A stretch of DNA of 61,366 bases, the filler included, from Dugesia japonica (lineage: Eukaryota): the NCBI GenBank assembly GCA_001938525.1. It is 6 parts of 6 records of this genome, joined end to end, with 100 filler letters (N's around TTAATTAATTAA, not from the genome) between each part and the next. Parts side by side here need not be neighbours in the genome. Positions count along the whole stretch, not along the records: positions 30,218 to 43,351 come from MQRL01604019.1; 5 more parts are not named here. One strand, 5' to 3'. Both the position numbers and the translations under genes were made by a program. The notes under the pieces were generated by a model that saw only the letters and a program-made list of their open reading frames with translations, had not been told where the DNA came from and did no database searches. Positions 4,491-53,926 of this stretch are shown one piece after another (position 1 is the stretch's first letter; each line of letters opens with the position of its first letter).

Positions 4491-4585
4491 GAAAACTAGT
4501 AATACTAGGGCTTAAAAATTTGAATTTTCAAGGATATCTGAATAACATTACTTCAGATTTCTTTAATTTGCTTGAAAAAATTTAG
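4491..4585 (+). pseudogene. 3' end of Polinton TBP-like gene (5'-truncated)
   Basis: Translates KLVILGLKNLNFQGYLNNITSDFFNLLEKI*. DNA is near-identical to the reverse complement of 36341-36436, the end of the full TBP-like copy. Confidence 0.75.
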
Positions 4586-5176: not shown

Positions 5177-5611
5177 TTAGATCTGGTTTTCGATGTTTTT
5201 GACTTTCCATATAACTCCTACCGAAATAATTCATTTCTTGAAGTCTTTAATATCCCCTCGAATCATATATTGACTGTCATCTTCATATTGGTTCTCGTAT
5301 CTTTCTTTAAAACTTATACAAATAGCTTCACTGGCTTCAATTTGTCTGCTTAATCTTGCAAACAGAATTTCCAGAATATTCCTATCCTTCTCATGAATTC
5401 CAGATAGAAGAAAACTAAATTTGGATCTTTTTATTGAAACTGGTTTCTAAAATAAAATATTAATTTATAACATTTAATAAAAAAATACTTTGAAGTCATA
5501 GATAATCGGTGTCCTCAAAAAGAACAACTTGTAATTGTGGAAATCAGTAATTTCCCCTAGTTCCACAGTTATTGTTGATACGTTTTCCTTAGTTAGTTGG
5601 TTTTCTTGCAT
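5177..5611 (-). pseudogene. Cassette gene B (~130-aa orphan), two exons
   Basis: MQENQLTKENVSTITVELG...IIYDFK | 42-nt intron 5447-5488 | KPVSIKRS...GIHEKDRNILE...SVGVIWKVKNIENQI*. One internal TGA. Homologues at 33590-34025 and 49370-49806. Confidence 0.8.
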
Positions 5612-11469: not shown

Positions 11470-11891
11470 TTTGATAATTTTATGATGATCCAATGTTCCA
11501 CTTTTCCACTGGCAAAAACATTGAGACATAATGGCTTGTATTTGTTGACTCGTAATTATGGAAATAATTCTGGTTCGAACCATCAATCTAATACACTGCT
11601 CCATCTATATAAATTTACTCCCCGTCCAAGATCACATGTTACAGTAATTGATTGAATACCATCTATTTGGATATTGATATTTTTGCAAGTAATTGGTTTA
11701 TACGTGATTGGTTTTTTGCATCCCATGATTTGACATTTTCTCTATTCAAAAATAATTATTGAATAATCTTTTATTTTCTTTACACACTGTCAGGGTTTCT
11801 TCCAGGTATTTACTTGGAGATCTGAAGGTGAATCAATTAGATGATAAATTAATATTTGATAACATTGTTTGACAAATGAGCAATATTCATG
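11470..11891 (-). pseudogene. Polinton-encoded TBP-like protein
   Basis: Pieces across frameshifts: LSNINLSS, DYSIIIF..KCQIMGCKKP, IQSITVTCDLG.VNLY, WFEPELFP*LRVNKYKPLCLNVFASGKV. These match the TBP second-repeat motifs YEPELFP and IFxSGK. Confidence 0.78.
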
Positions 11892-11926
11892 AGCTTATAT
11901 ACTTTTTTTGTATAAAAAACCATTTC

Positions 11927-12564
11927 TATGGTTTTTTTAAATTGTTGCTACAAAACAACGCAGTTTTTCAAATAGTCGACCTTAATGGAAGCGTCAAAAC
12001 ATTATTTGTTTGCAAATTATACAAAGAAAACTGTTTCGGACAAAGTTTAAACATATTTATTGGAATCAAAGTGGTGGATATGAAACCTGATTGACTAATG
12101 GTGAATTTTGCAAGTTGAGAAAGATAACGATAATTAATAGATTCGATGATGCTTGGTTAAAGAGATTAAATACTGGGGATTTTATTGTAATCGATGACTT
12201 GTTTGAAGAGGCAAATAAGCAGGCTGGTTTTAAGAATCTTTTTACAAAGACTGCTCGACATGGTAATGTAACTGTCATCTTTATCACCCAAAGTCTTTTC
12301 CATCAAGGTGGTATGCATCGTATATGTACTCTAAATGTTCATTATTTGGTTTTATTCAAAAATCCACGAGATCAAACTGTGGTTGATTATGTTTCTCGTC
12401 AAGCATTTCCTCACAAAAAAGGATTTTTATCTGATGCATTTCGTGATGTTAAGGCACATGGATATTTATTTATTGATTTTTTCCAACAATGTACTGATGA
12501 TGAAAGAGTAAAAACCGATATATTCGATTCGGAAGAAATAACAGTTTACAAACCATTGCTATGA
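11927..12564 (+). pseudogene. Polinton packaging ATPase (A32/FtsK-like)
   Basis: Degenerate Walker A (IVDLNGSVKT), Walker B IVIDD, ARHGNVTVIFITQ, YLVLFKNPRD, HGYLFIDF. Confidence 0.9.
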
Positions 12565-12599: not shown

Positions 12600-13093
12600 A
12601 TGAATCAATTTAAAAAATTATCATCAAACAAAAGGGTAGCGGTGGTAGTAATTTAAGACGATTCTCAAGAATTATTCCATACTTAAAAGCAATTTTAAGA
12701 GCTCCATCAAATTCTCGATGGCAAATTATGCACTCAACGCCGGTATTTGTCATGAATGATTTCATTAGTGTTTTGCAACAAATTGTTTTGGGCTGAGTCG
12801 ATGTTGGTCATAAAATTGGAAAATATAGGTTGAAAAAGTATCAAGAAGCTCTTTTAGATATGGCAAAAGCAATGAATTTGGCAGCAAAGAAACGAATACT
12901 TGAAAGACATTTTCTTATACAAAAAGCAAACAAGAAGAAGGACAAAAAACAAGTTTATTATGGACAAAATGGAAATGGATTTTTTTGGGCTGCACTTTTA
13001 CCAATTCTAAGTTTGTTGGGTAAAGCGGCTGTAACCGGTGCAGTTGGCGCTGCTACAGGATATGCTACAAAGAAAATTATTGATTCTGTATAA
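12600..13093 (+). pseudogene. Conserved small Polinton virion-type protein
   Basis: IPYLKAIL...IVLG*VDV...QNGNGFFWAALLPILSLLGK: a QxGxG|F motif followed by an amphipathic segment. Homologue at 47625-47944. Confidence 0.65.
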
Positions 13094-13199
13094 ATAATTT
13101 AAATTGATTTTGATATTGCAATATAAATAGTTGTTCCACCTTCTAATATATCAGACATTTCACTAAATTTTCGTTGTTGTATTTTGCTCGATTAAGTTA

Positions 13200-14203
13200 A
13201 TGGAAAAACTATGGTTTAATCCAAAGGACCCGGTTGAATACACCGGTATTTCAAAGCTTGCAAATGCTTCAAATGTTTCGGTAAAAGAGATGAAGAAATT
13301 ATTAGGCAGCCAATTGGCGTATAGTTTAAATAGATCAATGTGAAAACGGTTTCCAACACTGAAATATATTGTTGCTGGGGTTAATAGACTATAGCAAATG
13401 GATTTGATAGAAATGATTCCATATGCAAGCTTAAGTAATGATTATTGATATATTTTGACATGTGTTGATGTATTTAATCGATTTGCACATGCAGTTCTAG
13501 TAAAACGGAAATCTGGTAAAGATATTTTGTTGGCTTTGACGGCAATGTTCAAAGATGCTCACCCAAAAGCTATTTAAACCGATTTGGGTAAAGAGTTTTA
13601 CAATACTCAGGTCAAATCATTATTGATACAATATAGTATACTGCACTATTCAGTATTTTTTCAGTACAAGACTGCTCTAGTTGAGCGATTTAATCCAACT
13701 CTACGCACACGATTAAAGAAGTTCTTTACCAAAAAGGTAGCAAAAAATGGAAACATGTTTTAATAAAAAATTTATGCATACAACCATTCTGAGCATAGAG
13801 TTATTGGAGGAAGAGGAAAGAAACCAGTTGATGTTACAGATGATGATTCCATCAATAAAAAACTAAAACCAAAATATAAAATTTGACAACATGTACGGAT
13901 TTCCAGAATTAGTACTACGGCATTCATCAAAAACTTTGAAAATAATTGGAGTGACGAAGTCTTTAAATCTCAGAAATCAACACGAGATAGTCACCAATCA
14001 TGCATACAATACGTGATGAAGATGATAATATTATTCAAGGCAAATTTTATGAGCAGGCTATACAAGTGTTATTGAAAACCCCAAGTTTAAATAGAATCAA
14101 ATCAATTCTCAAAACCAAAGATCAAGAAGAATATAAACAATATCTAGTTGAATGGCATGGGTGTTTAAAGCTTACGTGGATTCAAGCATCTCAAATCCAA
14201 TAA
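13200..14203 (+). pseudogene. Polinton rve integrase with C-terminal chromodomain
   Basis: QMDL, YILTCVDVFNRF, TDLGKEFYN, VERFN, NWSDEVF, IQGKFYEQ, QYLVEWHG. Multiple stops. Confidence 0.92.
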
Positions 14204-15543
14204 TGATTTTCTATATGATTTTGCCAAGCAATAGTTGTCCAAGAACTCGACCTGATAATAATGTGAGCAAGTATTTGGTTGACAATAAGAATGCCAACAA
14301 TTTAAAAGATGACCATTGGGAAGTTGTCATGACAGAATTTGTTTTCAATTATTGTCCACAATATTCAGAAAAGTTCAAAAATTGAATATAAAATAAGAAA
14401 GGTGATGGAAATTGAAGATAAATTTCAATTAAATATTGTAAATGGTAGTCTTCAACTTAATAATACAGTACATATCAAAAATTTTTAATTGGTATATATT
14501 TTCCAATAAAAGGAAAGTAATATTAAAAACAGATTGACAAGTAGAAATGGAGTTTAAAACGTTATCAGATGCTAAAAACTTTGGTTTCAATTTAATCAAT
14601 ACCAAAAATAAGAAGCCATAGTTTCAGTTATTGATGAGCAGTTGATTCTTGCAAATATTCCATCAATACCTTTAAAATTAAAGTTTAATACTATTGAGGA
14701 TGGAAAGGTTAAATTAAAGGAAATTGGAGAAAATATAAAATTTGAGAATAAAAATGGAAAACATGTTGTCTCTGGATTGAAAAATAAAACTAATTGCGAA
14801 ATCAGTATTAACTTTGAAAATAAAATAATTATCAAATATGATTGCAATATGGAATTGGAGTTTAATTCATTGTTTGATGCTTGGTTACTGGGGTTTAATT
14901 CACAAATGACGAAAAACCAACCAATGGATTCATTTATTGAATTAGATACTAAAATGTTGGATAATATCTCCAAAACTGATGTTAAATTAAAATTTACTGA
15001 AATCAAAACAGAAATAAATTAATTTGAATTTTAAAGTTATTTAATGGTTACGGATCTAGATAATCTAAATACATCATTTATAAAATTGTGCCATAAAATA
15101 TTTAAAGAATTTGTTTTAGATTCAAATTTTGGACTGGTCATGTTTAAATTACTTGATAATGTTGAATGTATCATTTGATGAGTCTTTCGCTAATACTCGG
15201 TCTTCCTTATGAGTAATTCTACAAATCTTCAGAACAAGTAAAGGGTTTACATAAACCACTATTACACGGTGGTATCAGACAACTNTATATTTACTTATCA
15301 ATAGTCTATCAAATTTAGGTTGGTGATGTACGCGTGCTACCTTTGAGAAGTATATAGGTTGATAGCAACAAGCATTCATTTGGTGATGTTGTACATGTAA
15401 GACTTGAAAATCAAATGTATTTACCTGTACAATCATCTTCCATCAACAAAATTGAAGTAAACATACGTGATGATACGGAAAGATTGATTGATTTTCCATT
15501 TGGATAAAAAACAAGTTTAACCCTACATTTTCAACAAGTTTAA
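14203..15543 (+). pseudogene. Polinton minor capsid protein (penton)
   Basis: N-terminus FYMILPSNSC...DNNVSKY...WEVVMTEF. C-terminus MYLPVQSSSINKIEVNIRDDTERLIDFPFG...LTLHF. A long variable middle includes ORF 14642-15022. Confidence 0.8.
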
Positions 15544-15599
15544 ACAATTTGATTACCATGTGATTCAATATTGAAATGGTTGATCGAGCTATTATCATA

Positions 15600-15980
15600 A
15601 TGTATAGTCGTCTACAAATGGGTGGAGACTTGCCAAATTTTATCGGTAGCCAGCAACAGCAAGATAGTGGAAATTGGTTGCATAGAATTTAAAGTTTTTC
15701 AATTCCAATTTTGCTGAAATTTGGACTTCTAATTGCAAAGTCAGTGTGGCGAGCAGCACTAAAAACTGTTGATGATGTTATAAGAAAGAAGCAGTCATTT
15801 AAAGAATCAATCAAAAACCAAGCACTGGATATGTTGCCGGATGTGAAGGAAAATATACTTAATGCATTAAAGGAGGTTGCTTTTGGACAGCATGGTAGTG
15901 GAATACTTAAACTGAAAAATAAAATAACATCAACTATAAACAAAGGACGACGATTAGATGGAAGTATCTTTGCAAAATAA
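15600..15980 (+). pseudogene. Second small Polinton virion-type protein
   Basis: QMGGDLPNFIGSQ...IPILLK...ALKTVDDVIRKKQSFKESIK...GQHGSG; carries MGG and QxGSG protease-site-like motifs. Confidence 0.6.
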
Positions 15981-24280: not shown

Positions 24281-24914
24281 TGAACAAATAACTAAATACA
24301 TAGAATATTTATTAAATATAAATTATAACGTTAATTCGTATTATTCAAATAGCATTATTTTGAATTTCCATAACTATGTCAATCTTTATGATTTCAAAAA
24401 GTTCTTCTGTATTTGTTGTTGAAAATGATCTAAAATTAGACATCTTGTATATATTCAAAATGTCTTCAAATATATGATTGAAATCATAATAGGTAGTATC
24501 CAAGGGTAATTATATCGCTATAATTATTTTTACCTTTTATTAATTGGAAATTTGCATAAATTCTCCTCGACCTAAATTTCGTTTGTACAAATATTTAATT
24601 CTTGTAATAACATTTAGGGTAATTATAAAGTTTCATTTTAAAATTAGTTTAAAGCATATTGATTTGTTAAATAATATTGCTGTTTGTAATTGGTGCAGGT
24701 TCTTTTCGTGTCGAAATGTAAATTTTCAGAACATATTAGAATTAAACTGTTTGAATAATAATCACGAATTCAATTAAGTTTAGTTTATCTAATCCTTTCA
24801 ATGTAAGAAAATCAGGATTAAGGAAGGTTTGTGTAGCTTGGAAGTATTTACTCACGGTATTGAGATAATTAACAATTGTATAATCAATGATGAACACAGA
24901 AATTTCAAAATATA

Positions 24915-25172
24915 ATAAAGCATGTTTGCCATAAGCCTCTATAATTAATTTATGCGCATCATTAGCCTTTTTCTTCAAATGAAATAATAAAAAGCAATGC
25001 TTCCCGCATATGTTGAAATTTTTTAAAAACGTATTTACAATTTCTTACATTGTTATAGATAGCGCTTAAAGTGTGTATTATTTAAACAAAATATAATTTA
25101 TATGAATTAAATTGTATCTAACTAAAATTATAATAAATACAAACGGCAAAGTCAAGCTTGTAGACCTAATAT
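24915..25172 (-). mobile_element. mariner 5' end (TIR plus transposase HTH start)
   Basis: TA-TTAGGTCTACAAGCTTGACTTTGCCGTTT TIR, followed by HMREALL..FHLKKKANDAHKLIIEAYGKHAL. Confidence 0.75.
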
Positions 25173-27179: not shown

Positions 27180-28634
27180 GATTTTGTATGCTTATTCAGT
27201 TATTCTGTTTATCAATATTTTTATTGCTCTCTGTACTCTCTCTTCATCCGTTGTACTGTGTCCATATTTTGCTTCTATATTACAAAGATACTTTTCATTG
27301 TCCTCTCATTTAGTCTCTCTCAGCTGTTGGAATCCAAACTGTTTCTGTAATTCTATTCCTCCTATTAGATCTGGATGTATCTGTTTCACGACTATGAATT
27401 TAACTGGTTCGCTTTTCTCGAATTTTTCTTCTACTTTTATCGTACCTACTATTTCGAGGTGACTATTATTGGCACATCTTAAATTGTCTTAAATTTTTAA
27501 TATATTGACTTTTATTTATATCATTATTTATACTACTTATTCTATAATTAACAATACTGCAATTTTTTGGGATACTTAATTCAACGCTTCGACAATCTCG
27601 ACTTCGGTCAGAGCTTCGCCATTTGGGTATTCATCTTGATAAATATTTGAACCTTCATTACAATAGTGACCTCTGTCTTCTCTACATACACAATCTTTTC
27701 CATTTTCTCAATTGAATTAACGTGACTTCATTCTTCTTGTGTAGTTATTCGTATTGTTCGAATAATATCTTTGGTTGTCATTTCCGAATACATTTCTGGT
27801 CTGTTCACTTTTATTCTGATAACTAAACTGCCTGATTATATTTGTGTAACAGTCCTCTGTGTGGTGACCTTTCTTGCTGCATCTTGAACAACTAACTTTG
27901 GCACAGCCTCTTCTCAAGTGTTTTTCAGATCAACAAGCATAACACTTTTTTTTCTTTCTTGACAATTTCTGCTTACATGAACTTTTTTGTTACAAGTCCA
28001 ACACGTTATTTCTCGTCTTTCATTGTTTCTGTTCTGTTACATTCCTTTATTTCGACTCCTGTTGAAATTTTTTTGTTCCAGGATTTCGGCGAACTGCATC
28101 TCTGTAGTTACGAACTACATTTATTTCTTCAGTTTTTACTTCGTCTTTTATGTCTTCCNNNNNNNNNNNNNNNNNNNNNNNNNNNNNNNNNNNNNNNNNN
28201 NNNNNNNNNNNNNNNNNNNNNNNNNNNNNNNNNNNNNNNNNNNNNNNNNNNNNNNNNNNNNNNNNNNNNNNNNNNNNNNNNNNNNNNNNNNNNATTAACC
28301 TTTCTACCAATCTTTCAATCTTCTTTTTATAGATATTTATATGCTCTCTATTCCTTCGATAATTTTGAACTTCCTCCATATCTTTAATCATTGTTGATGG
28401 CCGAAAAAAAACCTTTCTGAATTTTTCTTCAAATCTCAATGATTCGTCTTCATTTTCATAGATTTCACGCAGTTCTTTATCTATGAAAGATACTCTCCTC
28501 TGGTCTTTCTTTGTTCTAGTTATATCAAAAAATTTCGTGGTCTTCAAAATAAAATTTTCGACATCATCGCCCAATTGGAAAATTCCAGAGTTCATGGCTT
28601 CTTTTAGCAAATCCAATGATGCGTTGGGCGCCAT
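27180..28634 (-). mobile_element. gypsy gag/protease fragment, same family as 16680-18875
   Basis: gag ORF 28047-28634 and a CSRCSKKGHHTEDC knuckle. DNA aligns with 17790-18870. Confidence 0.85.
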
Positions 28635-30217: not shown

Positions 30218-33200
30218 TATATATATAATTATATTCATTCTAGTCATATTAAACCTCCTTGGTATTTCCATGATTATCATAGGTATTTTTATATTTTAAT
30301 ATGTATAAAACAAATTTTACTAATTTATCATTTAAAATATTGTTACATAAATATTTCATTTATTTATTTATTGTTTAAAATAATTATTTATTATTTATTT
30401 TTTTAAAAATAATATTTAAATAAGCTTTAATTGTTGATTGGAATAAACTTCATTAATTTTTAGATCTGGTTAGTAAATATTTGTAGAATAATAAATCAAT
30501 GTATAATCCATTTATATACAATGGATTCATAAAATCCATTTCTATTTTTTCGTATTTAATAAGAATAAAAATCATTTTTGAAATTTTCTATCTTATTTGA
30601 CGTTAGCAAACAAGTTCATTGAAACCAGAAAATACACTTCTCAAAAGGTTTTTCAAAAATTATTTGCATTTAATAGTTCTGTTACAAACCATATTTTATT
30701 TTGCATTAAATTTGATAGTACACAGTGTGACAATTAAGTTTTAAGACTGGGTCTGTAAAATCAAAAGAAAGCAAAATATAAAAAATTTATTAATTTCTTT
30801 TTCAAAATAATCCCATCCGGTGTCAATGTATCTGTTACACTGATTAAATAAAGATTGAAATGCCTGTTTCAGATTATGTTGATATTAGGTAGATACGAGC
30901 GCACTGGAACAGCAACCCCCCAGCCGTCGACTGTTTTACTAATTTCAGTGTTTTGACTGTTTTAGTATGGAATAATTTTGATTGGTCATTACAAAGACGT
31001 GAAAAATCTTTTCGAATTCGGGTTGGAACGGTCGAATGTTTACTCGGGAAGGTCGAAAATGCAAATTTTCGGTACAAAGTTTTTCAGCCAAATTTTATCG
31101 TGTGATTTCAAATTTGTTATTGATCGTCTTAGAATTGAAAGCATGGGAACACCCCCCTCCACCCAAGGGAAAATTAGTTTTTTTGGAAGATTTTTTTTTA
31201 TTTTTTCTTGTTTAAATGAGGTTAAATTATTTATTTTGTTTAAATGAAGTAAGATTATTGATTTTTTGTTTAAATTAAGTCAAAGTAATTATTTTTGTTT
31301 AAATTGAATGAAATTATTGATTTTTTATTTAAATTAACGAAATTAGTGTTTCTTTGTTTAAATTAATCGAAATTAAATGACTGTTCGTTTAAATTTAATG
31401 AAATGAATAATTTTTCAGTTTCTTCATGGAAAAGTTATTGAAAAGCTTGTTTCGTTTAATTAAACAAAAGTTATCAAATGTAATTTTATCCTCGGAAACA
31501 CATTACGCTTGAGCTGTGTTTTTTGTCATGATTTTTGTGCTCTTTTTTTTCTATTTTTTTCGAAAATTTTTGATCGGATAAAATTTTATTTTGATTGTAT
31601 CAGTTTTTTTGATCCTGAGTGTGTTTTTTTAAATTTTGTGTGTGTTTGGGTTGCTAAGGTGATTTTTAAAAAGAAGGTCAAGTTGAGTTTGTGTGTATGG
31701 TTGTGTGTGTAAGAGTGGAAAAACGAGGAGGAGGAGTTGGAGATCTTGGAACTAATTTTTTTGTAGTTTTAAGGATTTGGTTGTGGTTTGACAAAAATTT
31801 GGTCTATATATTGTCTAAAGGACTTATGAGTTTGGATGGATGGTTTTCGCTTCAAGGGTATTGACACACGCGAACAGTCGTATGAGTTATCGTGGGGTGT
31901 TTTTAGCGAAGCTGTAGGGTTGTATGTGGTTGATGGAATTTGTTTGTTGATGGGTTGTTGGAGAGGTAATGTGATGGTGAAGATTTTGGTTGTCGAATGT
32001 GCTTTGATTTTTATTTTAAAGGCTTGGATTCAATTGGTTTATTTTGTAAGTAGTATAAGTGTGTTAAAAGATTTTTTTGTGAGGTAGAGGTTGGTATGTT
32101 TGGAAAGAAAATTAATTATCAGATGTTTTAAGATTTATTTGAAATTTTTTTGTCACGTGGTTATGACGTCATAATTTTTTGAAGTCTTTACTTTGGTTAA
32201 AAATGCTGTATTTTGCTTAAATTGATGAGTTTAATGAAAGTAATGTTATTTTTGAGTATTTGATGTATTTTTGTTTAATTTTTTGGTATTTTTGAACAGG
32301 GAAGAGTTGTTTTTTTTAATATTTTTGAACGGGGAAGAGGGGAGTCAGATATTTTTGAAAACTTTTTTGGCGGGAAATTAAAAAAAATATTTTTGTTGGG
32401 AAATTCAAGAATTAAATATTTTGGTTGGAAAATTAACATTTTTCATTTCAATGGGGGGAAATCTTTTTAATATAATTAAATTTAATTATATTAAACTAAA
32501 TTAAAATAAAATAAATTAAATATTGAATGAGGGGCCACTATATTTAACATGGGGAGCCTCTATATTTAGCATATTATGGGACAGACTTGATATTTTTCAA
32601 AGTATGAGACAGTCTAAAATTCAAAGGCTCGTGATTTTCAGTGTATGTGTGTCGCAGCTTTAACGCTTCTGATTTACATGATAAAAATATAACTATTAAA
32701 AAAATCATAGAGTCTTTGTGATATTTGCATAATAAAAAATAACTTTTATTAAAATATTCTTTGAGACATTTACAAGATAAAAGTATATCTATCAAAAAAC
32801 TTCAAAGAGGGGAGTATTTTTAATATTTACATGTTAAAATATATCTATCAAAAAACTTTAAAGAAGGGAGTCTTTGTGATATTTTCATGATAAAAATATA
32901 TCTATCAAAAAACCTCAAATGGGAGAGTCTTTGTGATATTTACATGATACAATATTCAAATTAAAACTTTTCTTTACAAAATGATAAAAACATTGAACGT
33001 TTCTCATAAAAAAAAACATATAGGTCATGCAATTTTTCTAAAAAATAATATTACCGATTTCATTTTTAATAGAAAATCTCAATACCGATGTAATTTTTAA
33101 AAAAGAATCTCATCACCGATGCACCTTTTAATAAAAAATCTCATTAGCGATGCGATTTTCCGTTAGAAAACATAAAACATATTGGTGATGNNNNNNNNNN

Positions 33201-33589
33201 NNNNNNNNNNNNTTGGTGATACAATTTATACATAAATAAACATATTACTAGTGACAATATTTCTATAAAAAACATATAAGTCATGCAATGTGTCTATAAA
33301 CAAACATATATCCAGTGACAATATTTCTATAAAAAATATATTAGTCATATAATATTTCTATAAAAACATATTGGTGATGCAGGTTTTCTATAATAAACAC
33401 ATATGTACTGACAATTTTCTTATTATTTATTATTTGTGTAGTTACCATGTATTAATTACATAGTAACTGTGTATTAAAGGTTTCATGAGTGTATTATTTG
33501 CTATTAAAATTAAAAAGACTTTGTTTTCATAAAGATTTATTTCAGTATATAAAAAAACATGACACTAAGCAAACATTAAGTAAACAAAT

Positions 33590-34025
33590 TTAGATCTTTT
33601 TTGTAATATTTTTAACTTTCCATATAACTCCTACCGAATTAATGGACTTCATGAAACCTTTAATCTCCACTTGAATTATATATTGGTTGTTCTCATCATA
33701 TTGGTTTTCGTCTCTTTCTTTATAACCTATATAAATAGCTTCATAGACTTCAATTCGTCTGCTTAATCTAGCAAACCGACCTTCCAGTATATTTCTATCC
33801 TTCTCATGAATTCAAAATAGAAACAGACTAAATTTAAATCTTTTTATTGAAACTGGTTTCTAAAATAAAATATTAATTTATAATGAAATATAAAATAATT
33901 ACTTTGAAGTTATAAATAATTAGAGTCTTCAAAAAGAACAACTTGTATTTGAGGAAATCTGTAATTTTTCCAAGTTCCACAGTTATTGTTGAGACGTTTT
34001 CCTTAGTGAGTTGATTTTCTTGCAT
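33590..34025 (-). pseudogene. Cassette gene B, copy 2
   Basis: MQENQLTKENVSTITVELGK...YNFK | 43-nt intron 33860-33902 | KPVSIKR...QVEIKGFMKSINSVGVIWKVKNITKKI*. One internal TGA. Confidence 0.8.
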
Positions 34026-34264
34026 TTTTGAATTGTAAAAGTGATTAACGTTATGTAAACCTTTGCTTATATACTAGTTGCGGTACACGCATACTCATTA
34101 TTTTTGAGTTTCAATTTGTTAATGTTTGCCAAAATTTATATGATTTGTTAATATTTATTTTAACAGTTATGATTGGTTACCGTGTTTATATAAATAGGAC
34201 TCTTTTTTAAAATAAATTCACTTTTTACTTTTTTAAATGAAAAATTTTTGAAAAATCTTTTCAA

Positions 34265-34756
34265 TGAGAAAATGGAATTAAAAATGATACTAACCAAGAA
34301 GAAATAGAAAATATCATTGCAACCATCAATATTAATGAAGAACAAACAGTAATTCAAGATGAAAAGATGAAATATGCATACCCTGACGAGGAAGACGATG
34401 GTTTTTGGTTTGAATATTTAGATAAAAGATATGAACATTATTATGGTAAGATTTTATTATGTTAATAATAATAACTCTTATGGTAAGAGTTTAATTTATC
34501 ACTAATTTTTTTAATTTTCCTTTTAGATTTAGCCAAACAGATATTGAATAAAAGGTTCCCAGAATATTATAATGACTGTGAACTGTTGACTACCATGGAA
34601 TATTTCACTCATATCTTGCGAACAACTGGAATTGATATGGATNNNNNNNNNNNNNNNNNNNNNNNNNNNNNNNGATTTAATTTCCCGGCAAATGTAAACA
34701 AGACTCATTATGAAATTTTAAAAGAAAATATTTTGAGGATGGCTGAAGCATTTTAA
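34265..34756 (+). pseudogene. Cassette gene C, copy 2
   Basis: Acidic exon 1, intron 34446-34526 (donor duplicated at 34483), exon 2 DLAKQILNKRFPE...RTTGIDMD...HYEILKENIL. Confidence 0.72.
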
Positions 34757-35717
34757 AAGTAATTTAACAATGTGCTAAAAATAAATGTTTTACTTGATAA
34801 TTATTTTGCCTTATTTACTTTTTTAAATTAATAAAGTTCATTTTATTAGTGAAAGGTTTTTTATTAGTAAAATTATAAGTGGCACTTATTGAAAATAGTT
34901 TTTTATTATGAATGCAATATGTATGCAGTTCAGCAAAAAATACCTACTATATAATTATAAAAGGTAATTACACAAATAATAAACTCATAAACCTAATATT
35001 ATATGGTTGCTAACTCAATAAACCATGGTAACTATGATTTTTAATCTTAATTATATAAATAAACCCTATAATACAAGCGACCTATGCAAATAATACTCTC
35101 ATAAACCATATATTTCATGGTTGTTATGTAAATAATACAAACATAAACCTTATAATACATGGTTACTATGTAAATAATACACTTATTAACAATATATAGT
35201 CATGACAACATTTACTTATAAGTTTTATAAAGGTCTTTATGTATTTTTACAGTAATGTTCAGTAATATATATGAGAGATTGTCACTCTCACAAATCTTAT
35301 AATATAAATTGCTATGTAAATAATACAAGGTACCTATGCAAATAAAATCACTCATAAACCATATACACTCATAAACCCTATATATATCAAAATATTTACT
35401 TATAAGTCTTTTTTATATAGACATATTAGTTATATATTACAAGGTTCCATGAATTTATGATTTTTATGAAAAAAAGTCTGTTTTTTTAATCATTTTGTAT
35501 AGAAATATTCCCAGCTAATATTTTTTCATGAAAAATTGTCACTACTAATATGTTTTTTATAGAAGAAATTGCATCGCTAAAATGTTTTCTTTATAGAAAA
35601 ATTGACAATCTTTATTTTATTTAAATTCTAATTTTAAAATACATTATTTTTAAAAGAAAAACTAAATAAAATAAAACTATATCAAAAAAGACTCAATTAT
35701 AATACATTTATTTTTAT

Positions 35718-36198
35718 TTACCTATAACAAAAATAATTTGAATAATTGCGAAGATCATTCTGATGGTTTTCCATAGCTACCATCAGATTAAACTTAGCAC
35801 ATCCGAAACAATCAGGTGCACAAAAATCAGCTGTCATATAGTTAGTTATCACTACTTCCGGAAGAAAAGGTTGTCTTTCCTCGTCCAGGATCCCACGTTC
35901 TTCGCATAGATCAACCAGCATTCTTTACTTTCTTTAACGGATTTACCTCATTCTTTAAATAATTAGAATTTACAGGATCATGTTCATTACCTGGTCCTTT
36001 CTTTATTTGTAGAGGCGATTGCATTTTTAAAATAAGTATTTAGATATGCAATATTAACGGCATCTTAATCTTTCTATATCTAAACCAGCATTCCTAAATT
36101 AAATTTATTAATAAAATTTAAAAATTAATAAAAATCAAACCTTTCTTGCTAAACACCTCTTCGGTTTTCTTTAGATTCTTAATAATTGATGAAGCCAT
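35718..36198 (-). pseudogene. Cassette gene A, copy 2 (interrupted by a 159-bp insertion)
   Basis: Exon 1 MASSIIKNLKKTEEVFSKK, intron 36094-36140, exon 2 GMLVDLCEERGILDEERQPFLPEV...FCAPDCFGCAKFNL. Confidence 0.75.
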
Positions 36199-36340
36199 TT
36201 TAAAATTACAAGACAATAATAATGAAATACAATAAAACCACAAAGTTATATATTCATTATTTGAAATTTAAATATCTAAATTTAAATTTATATTTTTTAT
36301 ATTTGAACTGTAAATGTTTTGCATCCGTGTTACGAATTTT

Positions 36341-36815
36341 CTAAATTTATTTAATCAAATTGATTAAATCTGAAGTAATGTTATTCAGATATCCTTGAAA
36401 ATACAAATTTTAAGTCCTAGTATTACTAGTTTTCCTGTTGAGAACACATTTACCCATAAAGAGTCATATTTTATAAGTCTTAGTGCAGGAAATAACTCTG
36501 GTTTGAACCAACAGTTGACTATTCTTACTAATTTATACAGGTTTATTAAAACTCTTATATTTACGACAATAAATAGCTATTGTAATTGTAAATATTTTGT
36601 ATTATAAGATTCAAATCANGANGTTCCAAAGGTTTCGTACAACCCATTATTCTACATTTTCCTGATCTAAAGTACATAATTGTAAATTTATCACTTTTGA
36701 CTTTAAATTAACATAGTTTGCCTGTTGGAAAACTTATTTTCTTTGTTATTTCTTGAGTCAGTTTACTTCTGCAATTATTATTGGTTATCATAATTAATGA
36801 ATTAAATAGGACCAT
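36341..36815 (-). pseudogene. Polinton TBP-like protein, near full length (~155-160 codons)
   Basis: MVLFNSLIMITNNNCR...FTIMYFRSGKCRIMGC...INLYKL...CWFKPELFPALRLIKYDSLWVNVFSTGKLVILGLK: two TBP-like repeats with a few stops. Confidence 0.82.
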
Positions 36816-39661
36816 TTGTGTTATGATAGATTTAATTTAATTGATTCGTTAAANNNNNNNNNNNNNNNNNNNNNNNNNNNNNNNNNNNNNNNNNNNNNNN
36901 NNNNNNNNNNNNNNNNNNNNNNNNNNNNNNNAATACCCTCATAAGCCTTATATTACACAGTTATTAGAAAATAATACATAGTTGTTATGTAAATAATACA
37001 CTCATTAAACCTATATTACGTAGTTGCTAAGTAAATATACAAATATCACATTCCTAAACCCTATATTACAGGGTGACTATATAAAAATACCTTCATAAGC
37101 CTTATATTAGACGTTTGCTATGTAAATAATTCCCTCATAAGTCTTATATTTCATAAAACTTAAATTTCATGGTTGCTATGTACATAAAACACTCTTAAGT
37201 CTTATATTTCATAAAACTTATGTTTCATGGTTGCTATGTGCATAATACACTCATAATCCTTTTAATTCTTATTATATACGGTTGCATGTAAATAATACAA
37301 TGTAAATATACAAATATTACACTCATATATGTTTTTTTATAAAAAAGGTTCAATGTTTTTATCATATTGTAAAGAAAAGTTTTGGTTATTTTTAATAGCT
37401 ATATTTTTATCGTGTAAATATCGCAAAGACTCCCCTTACTAAAGTTTTTTGAGAGATATATTTTATCATGTAAATATCATAAAAACTCCCCTCTTTGAAG
37501 TTTTTTGATAGATATATTTTTATTAATGCAACTCAGAAGCATTAAAGCTGCAACACACATACACTAAAAATAACGTGCCTGGGAATTTTTTAAATAAATG
37601 CAATAGGTATGCAACTCAGTTGCAACTCAGATGCAACACACATACATTAAAAATCACAAGCCTATGAAATTTTATTGATATTTTAAATAAATGCAATATG
37701 TATGCAGCTCAGATGCAACTCAGATGCAACAGACATACACTGAAAATCACGAGCCTNNNNNNNNNNNNNNNNNNNNNNNNNNNNNNNNNNTCAAGCCTGT
37801 CCCACATCATGCTAAATATAGAGGCTACCCATGTTAAATATAGTGGCTCCCCATTCAAAATTTCAAGACTGCTCAAAACTATGCAAAATAACAAGACTTA
37901 CCATACCATGCACAAATATATAGACTGCCAATACCATGTAAAAGACGAAGACTGCCCATACCATGTAAAAGACGAAGACTGCCCGATATCTTGTATTAAT
38001 ATCTTACAAAATATCAAGACTGCCCGATATCTTGTAATAATATCTTACAAAATAGTTTGTATTATTTAAATAGTTACTATTAGATTATTGCTCCATTTCA
38101 GTGGTTTGAGTAGTTTTAAAATTTTTCAGGCACGTGTTGGTGTGTTGCAATTGTATTACATACTTATTGCATTTATAAAAATTTCCAGGCATGTGTTACT
38201 ATATTGCATTCGCATTGCATACCTATTGCATTTATTTTTGGAGAGAAATTTAAAAAATATTATTTTTGGCGAAAACAATAAAAAATTAATTTTTGGCGGG
38301 GGAAAATTTTAATTTAATTAGACTTAATTAAATTTAATTAAATCTCTTTAGAAAAGACATTATATTTATGTATGAGATGAGACAGTGTTGATATTTTGCA
38401 TGAGCTGGGTGGAGTCTCTATATTTTGTAAGATATTATTACAAAATATCGGACAGTCTTGATATTTTACATGGGGAGGCACTATATTTAAAATGAGGAGT
38501 TTCTATATTTAACGTGGGGCAGTCTTGATATTCTGAATGAAGAGTCTCTATATTTCGCATTGGATGGGGCAGATTTGATATTTTCCAAGGCATCGAGCAG
38601 TCTAAAATTCATAGGCATGAGATTTTCATTGTATGTGTGTAATGTAAGAATAATTATATAGTAGGTATTCCTCTTATTAATTACATCAGAAATTAATTAA
38701 TCTGATTTAAATAAAAATTCATAAAATTAATTTCATTAAATTTGAATTGAACATTTATTATATATAAACAATTTTTACATTTGGCTTGATAATTTTCCCT
38801 TCAATATTTAATAAATACAAATTGTTTTACTCTTCAAATCAATCAATAATAATTGTTATTTATTTTAGAAATCAACATTCATGGACGGAGATTATTTTGT
38901 AATACACGGCCGAGGGATTCAAGTATTCTTACAAGCAATTTTGAATTATTCATTTAATATCTAGTGATATAATTAAGAATCAATTTTAATTAACAAAATA
39001 TATAAAACTTAAAGTGTTTTTTTCAGAAAAAACATGAATATAAACAAAATATTCTTAAATGTTTATTATATTTTATTGATAATTTTTTATTTTAATATTA
39101 CATCACTCACTTCTCAAATGAGTGAGCATATAGTATAAAGCCCAGATGAAGTTAGACTATACAAATCCATTCTGCTAGCTCGTATCGAGTTACTTCGATC
39201 ACTTTACCGTCTTCATTACTCCATGTCACGAGACTTGGACCTTCTTTAACAAATTACAATGGCTTTCTTAATTCGTGTTTGACCTTTATAAATTTGTATT
39301 TATCATTGTGGTTTGTAGTGAATATTTTGTGACGTCGCTCTTTTGAAATTATTTTGAAACATTTCCTTGTTTTCAAAAGTACGATGTGCGAGCTTCAAAA
39401 TCAGATGAGTATAATAAACTAAAGTTTTCACACAACTATATTTATCTGACTCCAAACAGTTCATTTACGTTGCTGTTATTAGCCTTATTACTTTTGTAGT
39501 GGGGGTTTAATTCAGTAAATAATTATATGATAAATATTAAAAATAAAACAATATAAAACCCTTGAAGATTTATAAAATAAAAAGCAATAACGTTATAAAC
39601 TCAAAAAATAATTATTTATCTTTTTAAATAAATAATTGACAACCATTTTTTAAAATATTTA

Positions 39662-40534: not shown

Positions 40535-41430
40535 TTTGCATTAAAATAAAGAAATTTATTTCGATCAAAATAAAATTTATTTGTAAAGAAATTCAAATTT
40601 TCGACACACTTGTCTTCTTCAGGAATGATGACTTTCTGATTGATTCAAAATAACAATCGATCTTTGCAATACAATAATTAATCTTTTATCGAAATTTTAT
40701 TGGTCTATTAAATTATAATTTTTTTTTAAATGATATCTCAAAAATTCTTTTTAATTAAATTTAATTGAAAATTTTTTAATAAAATATTTAGATATGTATT
40801 TTTTTAATATTAAAATTTTATAATATTAAAACTCTAATATTTTTACTAATTTTTTTATTAAAAGTTTTTTAGTTATGTTAATTATTAAGAATCCTTGAAA
40901 AATGTTTATTTATTGAAACCTTTTAATTATTGTAATTATTTTAAATCTTTGAAAATGTTAATTATTTAACGGAATTTTTAATTATTGCAAAAAAAATTAA
41001 TAATAATTTAAAAAATATTTTTTTGCAATCATTAAAATTTTATCAATTATTACAATAATTAAAAAAAACTTTTTCAATAATTATCATTTTTTAAAGAATT
41101 TAAATAATTACAAATTTTAATATTAATAAAAAACTAATCTAAAGATTTTAATACTTTAATACATTAATTTAATTTTTGTAAAAATCATTTAAAATATTTT
41201 TAATTAAATTTATTTAAAAAGAATTTTTGAGATGTAATTTAAAAAAAAAATTATAATTTAAATCAACCAATAAAAGCTCCATTATAGATTAATAGTTTTG
41301 TAGCAAAGATCTATTGTCATTTTGAATCAATCAGAAAGTCTTCATTCCTGAAGAGGACAAATGTAGAAAATTTTAATTTCTTTACAAATACATTTTATTT
41401 TGATCAAAGCCTTTTCTTTATTTTAATGAA
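40535..41430. repeat. ~0.9-kb imperfect palindrome with hammerhead-bearing arms
   Basis: 40561-40760 is the reverse complement of ~41220-41410. Centre near 40990. Confidence 0.75.
40591..40626 (-). ncRNA. Minimal hammerhead ribozyme motif
   Basis: AUUC-CUGAAGA-A-GACA(AGUG)UGUC-GAAA-AU-UU|GAAU. An eroded mirror copy lies at 41344-41376 (+). Confidence 0.6.
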
Positions 41431-42564
41431 ATCTCAAATGCGATAAATGGTTAATTGTGCAATAATTATTCTCACAATAATTGTAATTATAATTTAAAAT
41501 AATTATTTTTATAAATATTTCAAATTTTTATTTATTTTTTATTTGAATTAATAATTTAGTTAATTATTATAAATTAATAAATTGATTAAATTTTATCTTT
41601 ATTAATACTCACTTATTCAATTAGCAAATGAGGATGAAATGCAAGTGTTTATTAACGATAATCAAGGTTTGCAAACTTTATTGAAAATATAATTATAAAA
41701 CATAAAATACTAAAAAATATTTAAAAGCTATGAAATATCCACACAAGGATGAATATAAATGATTTTCATTTAGAATGAATTATAAATAAAGTATTATAAA
41801 TAAATTATGTCAGATAAATCAAAATATTATATTTATGAAAACTACATTTGAAATATATTTCCAAACCCGTTTCTAAAATTCTATGTACACCAGTCTTCAA
41901 TATTGGAAGTTATTCTGCTATTTCTAATTCTAGTTTTATGGAACTTCTATATTTCTGATGAATATGCTATTTTTGATTTGGAGCAATCCTTTAATATTCA
42001 TTAAATTATATATATTTTTTCAATAACCTTTAGAAAAAATTCGTGTGGTTTTATTGATTTTGTGAAAATATTATAATTATGTGTCATTCAATGACGCATC
42101 CATCCATACGAAGTTTTGTGCGATCAAAGTATAATGAAAGAACTTAAAATATTCATTTGCAAATGCGCGATAACTCATCAAAAAATTAAAAATAAATTTT
42201 CTATTAAAAAACCGTGTAACATTTTCATCAGTAGGTGATTTCTGTTGGCGATTAGTTGGAGAGTGTTGCGGCAGTGCGCACATATCACCTACTGTCACAA
42301 CATTGATGTTGAACTGATCGATTATATTTGAAATAATGAATAATATATCTTAAAAAAGATTTTTGTATTTTATTTGATCTGTTTTCATTTCCTCTTAAAT
42401 TTTTATTGCAAAAATAAAATGGTAACCTCTAACTGTGTCATCCTGTTTTTACAAAATTATTTATTTTAATATTTTCGTTGTATTTTATTTTTGTTTTTTA
42501 ACTGATTAGAGTATGAGCTGTCAGAGATATGAGCTGTCTGGGCTAAGATGTTTACATTATCATT

Positions 42565-44500: not shown

Positions 44501-44639
44501 TTCATCGTTAGAAGCTTCGGTAATTATTTTAAATATAGTTACAATATTTAATTGAAATTTCTAAAATACTTTTCTTAGAGAATCATACAGAATTTACAAA
44601 TAACTTTTCTTATCATGTACCGGAGTAAATAAAAACCAA

Positions 44640-45070
44640 CTATTGTATCAGATGAAATCGGATGGTCTGCTGGATTCAAGCAATTATCTAAACGATAACC
44701 CACTCTATTCCAGCAATGTGGCCAATAAAATTTGATTGTTTAAACATGACGGAGCAGGTGAATACTTTACTGAATGGGTATTCCTAAAGCCGAAATGTTA
44801 TAAGTTGAAGATAAAGGATTCTTGTACGATAATGAAGGTAAAGGAAATAAGAATAAAAAAAACAGATATCAATCATCAGAACTATTTAAATGCATATATT
44901 AAAGATGAAGACAATTAAGAAGAACAAAACAAGGTTATGCAGACTAGCTTTCGTTTGATAAGTCACCAAGTTTACACATTAGAGAGTAACAAACGCGTTT
45001 TATCATGCCTGGATGATAAGCGCATTTAGAGTGAAAGATATACTACTATGACCTATAGTAATTATAAAAC
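44640..45070 (+). pseudogene. pPolB C-terminus (type 2)
   Basis: LLDSSNY...HPLYS, LFKHD, EWVFLKPKCY, NKRVLSCLDDKR. Homologous to 53540-53920. Confidence 0.8.
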
Positions 45071-46417: not shown

Positions 46418-47020
46418 ATAGTTGTTAATTCATTAACAAAAACAATTATTTTATCAGAATTCAAAGTTTATTTCAGAAATCAAGTGATTTACTTAGTTGC
46501 TCTAATTTTGTTATGTATAATTCATCTTTCAACTGTATAGTATGATAATTTACTTTAGAATAAGTTATTTTAATTTTTACATTTTCTATTAAAAAATCAT
46601 CATTAAATGCTGAATATACAATATAAGTAAATCTAGTTTTCTCTTTGTTAGTCTTATATGGGTATCCAAATGTATATGCGATTTTTTCATCTTCAAATAT
46701 GATAACATATGGATATTCACAAGCAATATTTATCATCCTCCTATATGAAAAGATTGTCATTGTAATCGAATTTCAAGAATTTTCCTTTGTGATTAATAGT
46801 AACAGTCATTTCATTTAATATACTTTTTGATTACATGTATTGAATTTTAGAATTGCTATATAATAGAAATTTTTGATATACAAAGGTAAAACCTTACAAT
46901 GCTACTTCCCACTGACCATCCCTATAAATTGGATTTTGAAGGTCAACAATGAATTTATTAGCATTATTATCCAGATGAATAAGTGAACAGCTATTATTCG
47001 GTAAAAGTGTATAGAAATTA
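46418..47020 (-). pseudogene. Polinton penton, N-terminal part
   Basis: NFYTLLPNNSCSLIHLDNNANKFIVDLQNP...QWEVAL, homologous to 14203-14350. Confidence 0.75.
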
Positions 47021-47029
47021 CTTGATTTC

Positions 47030-47560
47030 CTCTGACGTTTCTTCTTGATCAACTATTTGTGATACTAATATCCTACTTGGTTTTTCATATTCATGCAACT
47101 TTACAAAGTATTTTTTATTCTTCCCAGTTCCATTTGATTTTGACAATTTTTTTATTCAATATATCTCTGGTGGTGGAATAACTTGTAATTCTTGTTCATA
47201 GAATTTTCCTTGCACGATATTATTTTCATAATTTTTATTAACATGCATGATAGAATTTTGTTTCGTGTTGATTTTTATTATTTGAAACTCTTCATCACCC
47301 CAATTACTATTGCAATTGTTGATAAATCGTGAAGCTATTTTTGAAATTCTCACATGATCACCAACTTTTTTACTTGGATTTTGTATTTGCTTTTGAATGT
47401 TTTCGTGATAACCATAACTTTAATTGATTGTTTGTACTTACGTCAACCGACCTTACTCCATTGAATTCCTTATGACCAGAATGATTATAACTATGAATAA
47501 AATTCGTTAAAACATTTATTTCAGTGTATCTCTCAATGTAATACAAATTTTAGGTCAAAA
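47030..47560 (-). pseudogene. Polinton integrase C-terminus and chromodomain (catalytic core deleted)
   Basis: FIHSYNHSGH, KVGDHVRISK, NWGDEEF, VQGKFYEQELQ, KYFVKL. Confidence 0.8.
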
Positions 47561-47624
47561 TTAGGCGATGATTGCAATCTACACATGGTTTATTTAAATA
47601 TTGCTATAAATCAGTAATTGTATA

Positions 47625-47944
47625 TTTGAAATGAGTTAATCCTAATGCTGCTAATGTCATTGCTATTAATGCTAAAATAAAATTAATCCTGATATTCACT
47701 ATTACTCGTCTCAATAATTTCCTATTTTTTGTATTTACAAGCGTTAATAATGTTTTTTGTTATGTTTTTTCAATACATCATTTTTAGCATCGCTCAAATT
47801 TACATTACCACGAACAATATTTACAATAATTTTAATTAAATCATCTATAAAATATGGTAGAAATAATTGCAAAATTTTCATTCTAGAAAATCTTGATGAT
47901 TTAATCAACGCGATAAAAAATGAAATAATTTTTTCTAATTTCAT
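47625..47944 (-). pseudogene. Small virion-type protein, homologue of 12600-13093
   Basis: FIALIKSSRFSRMKIL...IIVNIVRGNVNLS, then a hydrophobic tail (GLILFLALIAMTLAALG). Confidence 0.6.
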
Positions 47945-48229: not shown

Positions 48230-48850
48230 ATTTTGTTTATACACTGTTATACCGTTTGGACTAAAAATATCAATTCTCACTCTATAGTCATCTAGACATT
48301 GTTGAGTAAAGTCAAGAAATAAATATCCCTAAGGATTTTCTGTTGCATCTTGAAATGATTCAATCAAATATTTTCTGTTATTTGAATATACCTGTCTTGC
48401 TAAAAAATCGATAATAGTCTGATCTCTGGGATTTTTGAAGAGAACCAAATATTGTACTTTTAAATTGGGGGTTCTATGACTTCCTCCTTGATGAAATAGA
48501 ATTTGAGTAATAAATATCACAGTAACATTACGATGTTTCGATATCTTTGTGAATAAATTATTGAAATCGCTATCTTTATTTTCCTCCTGATACAAATCGT
48601 CAACAACAATAACATCACCGGGTCTCAATCTTTTTATCAAAGCCATTTATAATTTTCATTTTAATATTACAAAACTCATATTTAGTCAGTTCATTCTCTT
48701 CATCTGCGCCACTATGCCAGTAGAGGTTTTTAAATTTCGATTTGAATAAATTTTATTTCAATAATTTACATAAAACAAAGTTTTAGCACTACCACTGGGC
48801 CCAACAATTTGATAGACTGCATCATTTCTTAATTTCTAAATCTTGTTTTT
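48230..48850 (-). pseudogene. Polinton packaging ATPase, second divergent copy
   Basis: YQIVGPSGSAKT, VIVVDDL, SKHRNVTVIFITQ, YLVLFKNPRD. Confidence 0.9.
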
Positions 48851-48883: not shown

Positions 48884-49130
48884 TTGAAACCCCCAATTAA
48901 TTCATTAATTATTATTACTAATATTAATTACAGAGTGTCGCAAGAAGTAATAAAGAAAATGAGCTTTCTAATAGGTAAACCATGTCAATTCAAAGTCAAA
49001 AGTGACAATTTTACAATTATATTCTTTAGATCTGGAAAATATAGAAGAATTGGTTGTAAGAAACCATTGAAATCAAATGATTTGAACTCCTATGATATAA
49101 AAAATTTACAAAGATTTACCAGTCATTTCA
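48884..49130 (+). pseudogene. TBP-like protein, N-terminal repeat
   Basis: SLIIITNINYR...GKPCQFKVKSDNFTIIFFRSGKYRRIGCKKPL aligns with 36815-36600. Divergent from the ATPase. Confidence 0.75.
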
Positions 49131-49806: not shown

Positions 49807-50085
49807 TTTGAATTGTAAAAGTGATTAGTTTTTGCGAAAACCGCGGTTTATATACTCGCTACCATGCATAACTACTCGTTTTTTAAATTTCTATTAGTTG
49901 TTACCTGTTTTAAAGGAAATTATTGGTTGTTATTTTTTACGATGGTCATTAGTCGATATAAGTAAAATAATTCGTTATTTTTCTTTATAATTGATATGAT
50001 TTGTTAACGGATTTATATAAATATGACTTGCTTTTAAGGAAATTTCATTCTTTTTTCGAAAAAATCCCTGTTTACAAATTTATCA

Positions 50086-52730: not shown

Positions 52731-53926
52731 ACATCAACAATCTATATGGATGGGCATTAAGTCAGAAATTGCCCTATGCTGATTTCTAATGGGTATATAC
52801 TGGATTAGATTCAGTTTTGGAAGAATGCAGAATAGGAGATCTCGAATCGTTATCATATGGATAAACATAAGAAGTAGATATGGTTATACCAGCAGAAATC
52901 CAAGATGAACTGATTGATTTACCTGTTGCAGCAGAACATCAAAGTGCTCCAGGTAGTTAGGTGATAAAATTAATGCTGACTCATTACCCTAAAAGAAATT
53001 ATGTCATACATTGGAGATTGCTGCAAATTTATTGCAATTGGGTGTAAAAATAACAAAGGTACATAGAGGTGTAAAGCTCAGCCAGGCATCTTTTTTCAAA
53101 CAATATATAGATGTTAAGACTAAATTAAGATCAGAGTGTAAATCAGAGTTGGAGAAGAATTATTATAGGCTTTTAAATAATAGCCTGTATGGTAAAACAG
53201 TTGAAAATTTAAAGAAAAGAATGAATTTAAGATTGTGTAATTCAGCTCAAAAATTGATGACATATACATCAAAAGCTGGATACAACCAAAATTGATGATG
53301 ATCTAATAGCTGTTTGGTTGAACAAAGAAATTGTTTGTTTGAATAGACGAGCTACATCGGACAACCTGTACTTTACTTAAGCAAGCTAAGAATGTACCAA
53401 TTGCAGTACATTGAGCTTGAAAAGTACAGAAAAGAAGAAACTTGTGAGATAAATATTGTAGCCGGTGATACGGATAGCTTTTTCTTGGAGATTAAGAACA
53501 TAAAAGTGGAAAAACTAACCGGATTAATGAAGAAGTACCAGCTATTGGACACATCCAGTTACAACACAACCCATCTCTTTTACAGAAACAATTTAAATTC
53601 AGTAATTGGAAAGTTCAAGGATGAGAGTAAAGGGAAGAAATATCAAGAATGGATATTTTTGAGACTAAAGTGTTATAGCCTATTTAGCTATAGAATCAAT
53701 GAAAGCTAAGGGCATAACATTAAAAGGTACTGACATTTGTCATCAGTCATACCTTGATTGTTATAATAATAATGAAACGGTTTAAGTAGAGCAATTTCGA
53801 ATAACATAAAAAAATCATCAGCTCTACAGTATTAAGAATAAAAAGATAGTTCTTTCCAATAGTAATGATAAGCGAGTATGGATATGGAAAAATGTAAGTT
53901 TACCATATAGGCATTACATATTGTAA
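52731..53926 (+). pseudogene. Protein-primed DNA polymerase B, polymerase domain (type 2)
   Basis: INNLYGWALSQKLP, NYVIHW, RLLNNSLYGKTVEN, AGDTDS, VIGKFKDE, LRLKCYS, NDKR. Confidence 0.92.

Follow-up and report, generated by a model that had tools for sequence, protein, structure and literature searches.

The window, by which we mean the whole stretch of 61,366 nucleotides of Dugesia japonica DNA analyzed here, consists of six spacer-joined contigs, and pieces of a gene for a TBP-like protein were found on contigs 1, 2, 4, and 5 (Table 1). The gene is ~150 aa long; all four copies are broken, and they are dead. The contig-4 copy is spread over three frames (repeat 1, 36591-36791; repeat 2, 36409-36609; tail, 36368-36409), with a stop inside repeat 1 and two Ns; in Pfam, its repeat 2 matched PF00352 with an E value of 3.8e-6 and 27.1 bits (cut-off, 22.9) and its repeat 1 with an E value of 0.0048. 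The contig-2 copy, which has in-frame stops and a frame break close to its start, passed the Pfam TBP cut-off as well (PF00352, E 1.9e-5). When a family profile made from intact relatives was used, the contig-4, contig-2, and contig-5 copies scored 42 to 126 bits, compared to 13.7 for the best of 10 shuffles; the contig-5 copy, for which Pfam gave no match by itself, scored 43.9 bits. The profile missed the contig-1 tail, which was found by tblastn alone (63% identical to the intact relative P0011, E 1e-8).

The initial annotation had read these four loci as pieces of a protein with both TBP repeats and had quoted several motifs. FFRSGK was found in the contig-5 copy and YFRSGK in the contig-4 copy, while F[EK]PELFP and NVF[SA][TS]GK were both present in the contig-4 and contig-2 copies. 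The presence of TBP-like pieces on four contigs with the quoted motifs was therefore confirmed by the PF00352 and family-profile matches; as TBP pieces, three of the loci stood by the family profile, and the fourth is a 30-aa tail with no quoted motif intact. At the nucleotide level, the contig-5, contig-1, and contig-2 copies were 82%, 92%, and 68% identical to the contig-4 copy, and the window copies represent two lineages.

Table 1. Positions of TBP-like copies, Polinton genes, and promoter boxes along the window
Feature	Position	Strand	Remarks
TBP-like, last ~30 codons only	4493..4582	+	Contig 1; integrase fragment adjoins on the other strand
c1 remnant, predicted OB-fold ssDNA-binding protein	5330..5542	-	Accessory cassette
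TBP-like, near-whole broken copy	11499..11906	-	Contig 2; head-to-head with ATPase
Canonical TATA box TATATAAG	11894..11901	-	Contig-2 TBP-like gene; 36 nt ahead of its likely start codon (placed by homology)
A32-type packaging ATPase remnant	12004..12552	+	tblastn E 1e-75; Pox_A32
c6 gene, small basic protein with amphipathic C terminus	12659..13009	+	
rve integrase remnant	13182..14021	+	
TATAAACA box	14132..14139	+	Integrase 3' end, before the putative penton gene
Putative minor capsid (penton) remnant	14152..15537	+	Assigned from gene order and size
c9 gene	15591..15977	+	PW-like position; precedes the major capsid gene in relatives
TATAAACA box	15935..15942	+	c9 3' end; the relatives' box before the major capsid gene stands there
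TBP-like, broken copy with both repeats	36341..36815	-	Contig 4; end adjoins an assembly gap
Protein-primed PolB, C-terminal fragment	44604..45065	+	Contig 5
c6, integrase, and penton fragments	46744..47944	-	Contig 5
A32-type ATPase remnant	48233..48832	-	Contig 5; tblastn E 1e-68
TATAAACA box	48234..48241	-	Contig 5; ATPase 3' end
TBP-like, repeat 1 only	48911..49111	+	Contig 5; head-to-head with ATPase
Protein-primed PolB fragment	52733..53917	+	Contig 6; PF03175 E 5.8e-6

We confirmed that the window copies sit in Polinton (Beta-adintovirus-type) remnants. On contigs 2 and 5, the TBP-like gene and an A32-type ATPase stand head-to-head; after the ATPase come c6 (whose product is presumably cupiennin/PM-like), integrase, and a putative penton. 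On contig 2, c9 is next, and pieces of PolB were found on contigs 5 and 6. Behind the TBP-like gene comes an accessory cassette, whole on contigs 1 and 4 and in part on contig 5, and DNA homologous to the c1 remnant was found at 33532-34168 and 49399-50072. Protease and major capsid genes were not found within the window. The order integrase, minor capsid, PW, major capsid, protease is that of vertebrate Mavericks, for whose core genes no TBP is named in the excerpts of the same paper (PMC8097293). The Polinton context proposed for the TBP-like gene was thus borne out, both by the ATPase, integrase, and PolB remnants of the window and by the core genes beside intact relatives.

A search for sequencing runs with this DNA listed 20 rows in 8 studies, all from organism A and none of them RNA. 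RNA reads were examined over 34674-36618, a segment with no late gene, and no RNA start or end sites were called there. In the poly(A) run X22 of organism A, coverage was about 24-43x over 36364-36558, compared to at most 3.4x per strand over 35649-36038, and a repeat at 35129-35193 was deeper (85x). None of 331 reads was 99% alike and 314 were less than 95% alike to the window; since most reads fell below 95%, they probably come from other copies, a weak hint that other TBP-like copies are transcribed.

Several other features were noted in the window. The Polinton module of contig 2 stops after c9, and retrotransposon-like protease/RT fragments lie at about 16100-19350, a stretch partly repeated at 27206-28006. 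An imperfect palindrome of ~900 bp at 40536-41431 (74% self-match on the opposite strand) is possibly a MITE or foldback element, and a Mos1-type transposase HTH match lies at 24742-25044 (PF17906, E 5e-4). Degenerate short repeats, possibly sub-terminal, occur near the Polinton remnants (32500-33450, 35050-35480, 36950-37900, and 6700-7160); they are common to contigs 1 and 4 and are covered by RNA reads.

Intact relatives, fold, and residue pattern

With an X-read version of the contig-2 copy as query, 20 proteins of 127-174 aa were retrieved, and the family comprised 126 representatives at 50% identity clustering, a few of which may be repeat-driven or canonical TBP matches. When 85 members were made into a profile, it matched 2258 of 3364 candidates, a number that will include host TBPs. 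A metagenome scan yielded 39 loci with a TBP-like gene; a core Polinton gene was present in 15 of them (9 of 13 among loci of at least 3 kb) and some Polinton-cassette gene in 33. In L004 and L016, ATPase, integrase, capsid module, and PolB were all found beside the TBP-like gene. The adenain-type protease of L012 matched Peptidase_C5 (E 1e-7), and the L016 capsid protein had a double-jelly-roll-like cluster score of 0.98. The putative penton, c3, had no Pfam or NCBIfam match and was assigned by gene order matching that in the excerpts of PMC8097293, the major capsid alignment had no PDB sequence match, and NCBIfam gave no support for capsid, penton, c4, c6, or c9. In scans of IMG/VR, no relative of the TBP-like protein, major capsid, ATPase, or integrase was found, and these scans thus yielded no Polinton lacking the TBP-like gene for comparison. 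One bacterial match in GTDB, L040 (E 8e-4 over 56 aa), was weak and was discarded as chance. For P0009, the ESM Atlas returned TBP clusters only, with a recognition of 2063 (below the 2300 mark) and uninformative taxa.

The AF2 model of the intact relative P0005 (pLDDT 94.6, pTM 0.85) showed a full TBP saddle, matched TBP in Foldseek with an E value of 1.6e-9, and superposed on human TBP with a Z of 14.3 and an rmsd of 2.6 Å over 152 of 155 aligned residues, while identity to solved TBPs was only 18-25%. Two PF00352 stretches were also found in the TBP-like proteins of L004 and L012. The TBP fold expected from the initial annotation was recovered for an intact relative. In the tree, the nine host TBP/TBPL2 rows (of 18 intended, the other nine having dropped out at the core-cutting pattern; the rows included no animal TBP proper, TRF2, archaeal, or viral TBP) formed one clade on a branch of 2.41, and the window copies nested with P0005/P0004 and with P0011, that is, among intact members and separate from host TBP. 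Since TBP fold, Polinton context, and separation from host TBP all held, we found neither a missing TBP fold nor a grouping of the copies with host TBP outside Polintons.

Residues were counted over 85 aligned members, using yeast TBP numbering. The initial annotation had placed the TATA-intercalating phenylalanines of TBP in the quoted motifs, and three of the four were kept (F116 in 85/85, F190 in 84/85, and F207 in 85/85); there was no conserved Phe at F99, where P, K, R, T, or S stands instead. The lack of a YxPxxF motif in repeat 1 proved to be a family trait and not decay. On the C-lobe, the E-P-E stirrup was kept (E186 in 80/85 and E188 in 84/85). At five further positions, all of which face DNA in TBP structures, we observed substitutions in nearly fixed form: V71 to N in 72/85, V122 to R in 83/85, T124 to M in 84/85, N159 to S or T in 84/85, and L205 to N in 84/85.

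The protein has no N-terminal extension and its N-lobe stirrup is missing. The G125-Q158 spacer (the H2 region) had a median length of 21, compared to 32 in the host, and the P0005 model had no helix there. However, because 28 of the 85 members have a spacer of at least 24 aa (23 aa or less in the other 57), loss of the N-lobe H2 is not universal. A subset within P0087-P0145 (e.g., P0093, P0104, P0119, and P0136) has a longer H2 region that looked acidic by eye, and since the long-H2 subset lies nearest the host TBP branch, a stepwise loss of H2 is suggested. According to the excerpts of Ravarani 2020 (PMC7221094), the two stirrup glutamates (C.L3.2 and C.L3.4) bind TFIIB/Brf, and a cluster of basic residues in the N-lobe, most of them in H2, binds TFIIA, TAF1, Mot1, and Brf.

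The TATAAAC box and gene classes

For the promoter analysis, the 39 loci, all chosen for carrying a TBP-like gene, were collapsed to 23 groups, and boxes were scored at -120 to -20 against 200 shuffles. The box TATAAAC[AG] stood ahead of 33 of 47 module genes (ATPase, c6, integrase, penton, c9, capsid, protease, and c4), compared to a mean of 0.6 and a maximum of 3 in the shuffles, but ahead of 0/23 TBP-like genes and 1/20 other accessory genes. Canonical TATAWAWR was present at 10/23 TBP-like genes (shuffle 2.5, max 7), 13/23 being without it, and at 9/47 module starts (shuffle 4.0, max 11). The exact box was missing at 14/47 module genes, and integrase had it in 1/5 (ATAAAC in 4/5) and protease in 2/4. 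The TBP-like gene of L004 begins 5 nt after a gene that has the box, a point against the role proposed below.

Over the 39 loci without de-duplication, TATAAACA lay 25-100 nt upstream of a same-strand start at 41/73 sites, compared to 0/73 for its reverse complement, and box-to-start distances peaked at 29-48 nt. About one box per gene was seen in L004, L012, L016, and L033. The box often lies inside the preceding reading frame, in differing frames, and Ile-Asn was written as ATA-AAC in 25/43 cases within the last 40 codons of genes, compared to 13/120 elsewhere (p 3e-9); the box thus constrains synonymous codons. Within the window it was not intact ahead of either ATPase. Poly(A) signals after module genes showed no clear pattern.

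Two small genes near the TBP-like gene were also noted. c4 (L012:5870-6352 and 7 related ORFs) is a conserved gene of ~160 aa after the protease that carries a TATAAAC box; its product begins with a D-x-[EQ] motif and contains Cys/His clusters, with no Pfam match, and in several loci the gene lies directly upstream of the TBP-like gene. The commonest neighbor is c1 (L016:1788-2135 and 18 related ORFs), whose model resembled the OB fold of T7 gp2.5 and Enc34 SSB with a Z of 8.0-8.4, a borderline range; ASFV CP312R was also among the OB-fold matches (overall Z 8.4-6.7). On the basis of this model, c1 is a candidate Polinton ssDNA-binding protein.

Proposed role of the TBP-like protein

We consider it probable that the Polinton TBP-like protein is an early-made factor, which likely reads the TATAAAC box and recruits host TFIIB and Pol II. 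The fold model, the Polinton linkage, the residue pattern, and the split of the box between gene classes were directly observed; from there we infer the DNA binding, TFIIB binding, and timing of the protein, and the module genes are called 'late' by gene function. The TBP-like gene would have an ordinary TATA promoter and be expressed early through host TFIID, and its product would bind the TATAAAC(A) box ahead of most packaging/capsid-module genes, favoring TATAAACA over TATAAAAG. The C-lobe, with both Phe and the E-P-E stirrup, would dock host TFIIB and then Pol II, while on the N-lobe, where one Phe is lost, the invariant Asn, Arg, and Met on the DNA face would fit C at box position 7. With the TBP N-lobe taken to face the 3' half of the box, box and protein would both diverge on this side. 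As the N-lobe H2 is lost in most members, escape from TFIIA/TAF1/Mot1 control is predicted, and packaging and virion genes would be switched on beyond the reach of N-lobe regulators. The initial annotation had suggested that the protein may redirect host Pol II to the element's own promoters, and the box ahead of packaging and virion genes lends this role indirect support.

Taking the family as a whole, we lean slightly toward a widespread Polinton lineage with a one-protein, orthogonal late switch, in which the smallest viral TBP would have shifted its specificity to TATAAAC, shed the host regulator surfaces, and linked up directly with host TFIIB. If true, Polintons would have their first defined early/late transcription program, an independent counterpart of herpesvirus vTBP. 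This bears on how Polintons regulate their genes and on whether they go through a true viral cycle; a dedicated factor with a 7-8-base box ahead of most packaging and capsid genes makes a temporal program directly testable. The protein would also offer a natural altered-specificity TBP for studies of TATA recognition, and such copies may be mis-annotated as host TBP paralogues.

The closest functional parallel appears to be KSHV ORF24. Like the Polinton protein, the herpesvirus vTBPs (KSHV ORF24, EBV BcRF1, and HCMV UL87) are TBP-fold proteins of a nuclear dsDNA virus with a polar DNA face; in the excerpts of PMC12529657, a one-base-variant TATA box marks late genes and canonical promoters mark early ones, and ORF24 has a polar, Asn-rich face for TATTWAA. 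The TATAAAC box, nearly confined to genes called late by function, resembles this arrangement. By the same source (PMC12529657), however, ORF24 is a large protein that contacts the Pol II CTD directly and depends on five partners, and it keeps four Phe without the TFIIB-binding acidic residues. The Polinton protein, in contrast, is a bare core of ~150 aa with three Phe and an acidic stirrup, for a box TATAAAC instead of TATTWAA; the family (~145-175 aa) keeps E-P-E and is without the large Pol II-binding N-domain of herpesvirus vTBP. A search for longer proteins gave 73 matches, the named ones being host TBPs/TBPL2, and BcRF1 was matched in Foldseek with an E value of 7e-3, with no ORF24-specific homology seen. 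We conclude that this is a real Polinton gene family and probably a new form of late transcription driven by a viral TBP.

Nucleocytovirus TBPs were also matched in Foldseek (best E 1.8e-9). In the excerpts of PMC7221094, these two-lobe viral TBPs have likewise lost the N-lobe regulator surface, but they keep the stirrup Glu in ~40% and bring their own TFIIB; no TFIIB Pfam match was found in 62 locus ORFs (36 + 26) of incomplete Polinton elements. Cellular TBP and TRF2/TBPL1 (PF00352) share the saddle fold and the C-lobe EPELFP, whereas the Polinton protein is ~20% identical to cellular TBP, lacks the N-lobe stirrup and usually H2, and is Polinton-borne. TRF2 has also lost intercalating Phe, as stated in the excerpts of PMC10005294.

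It is conceivable that host TBP itself reads TATAAAC as a weak box (e.g., after template replication) and that the Polinton protein serves as decoy or repressor, tying up TFIIB or blocking canonical TATA promoters, whether those of the host or those of the element's early genes. Antagonism of host TBP, the other role offered by the initial annotation, thus stands as a rival. We take the C(-25) variant of 1qn3 to be TATAAACG by AdMLP numbering, and host TBP has been crystallized on this variant. In the excerpts of PMC10005294, the kinks of a TATA box fall at steps 1-2 and 7-8, and by Table 4 there plant protoplasts retained 27% activity with TATAAACG, so host TBP binds and partly uses the variant; a kept TFIIB stirrup with lost regulatory surfaces would also suit a dominant negative. 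However, C is fixed at position 7 even where synonymous drift in AT-rich DNA would work against it, which favors a sequence-specific reader over a merely weak box, and the invariant polar substitutions on the DNA face exceed the needs of a decoy, which makes this reading unlikely to us. Less plausible still, another factor might read the box and the protein serve some purpose other than Pol II late transcription, be it together with Brf1/Brf2 (Pol III), in integration targeting, or at the element termini. The same two Glu do contact Brf proteins in the excerpts of Ravarani 2020 (PMC7221094), and the small genes c4, c10, and c8 travel with the TBP-like gene, but a box about 30-48 nt before the starts of protein genes fits Pol II promoters with short leaders, and Brf1 also needs the N-lobe surface (PMC7221094, same excerpts), which is mostly deleted here. 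That the copies are decayed host TBP/TRF pseudogenes lying among repeats by chance, as the broken state of all four and a C-lobe EPELFP resembling eukaryotic rather than archaeal (EPEQFP) TBP might suggest, has a negligible chance of being right given the 18-25% identity to solved TBPs, the long host branch with window copies among intact family members, and the Polinton genes of the metagenome loci.

A TBP-like gene was presented by the initial annotation as foreign to the known Polinton gene set, with its novelty left to a search, and this stood in part. A 'TBP' label on a MELD virus was already printed in 2021 (Starrett et al., Fig. 5 legend, PMC8502044); that virus, a midsize linear dsDNA virus with adintovirus-like PolB, has a TBP-similar gene, but the label stands in the legend, and the excerpted text names no element, family, promoter, or function for it. 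The 2021 supplement text, possibly incomplete, had no TBP match. The Starrett legend was the only hit for Polinton/Maverick/adintovirus with TBP, TATA, or late promoter among the matches listed from openly readable text, and no paper among the matches listed had TATAAAC together with Polinton/Maverick. Lookups by TBP in excerpts of PMC11161782, 10.64898/2026.10.13.758929, and PMC11131425 found no TBP gene, nor was one seen in excerpts of PMC10748475 and PMC8097293 looked up by transcription terms; the excerpts of the Polinton papers searched had nothing on Polinton promoters.

Finally, some features of the relatives' genes were noted. AT-rich GT...AG stretches of about 45-60 nt, intron-like in appearance, lie ahead of the c7 to c1 and c8 genes (L013:1140-1838, L010:2374-3082, L018, L032, and c8 genes); vertebrate Mavericks are described as intronless in the excerpts of PMC8097293. 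Host-like accessory domains (E2 ubiquitin-conjugating enzyme, RING finger, dual-specificity phosphatase, and LRR) were seen, with such genes at L004:225-719, L033:1710-2168, L013:4008-4316, and L027:1618-1971. The PolB of L004:10212-12848 and of L016:9125-12391 had an Endonuclease VII-like match, with E values of 5e-5 and 8e-5.
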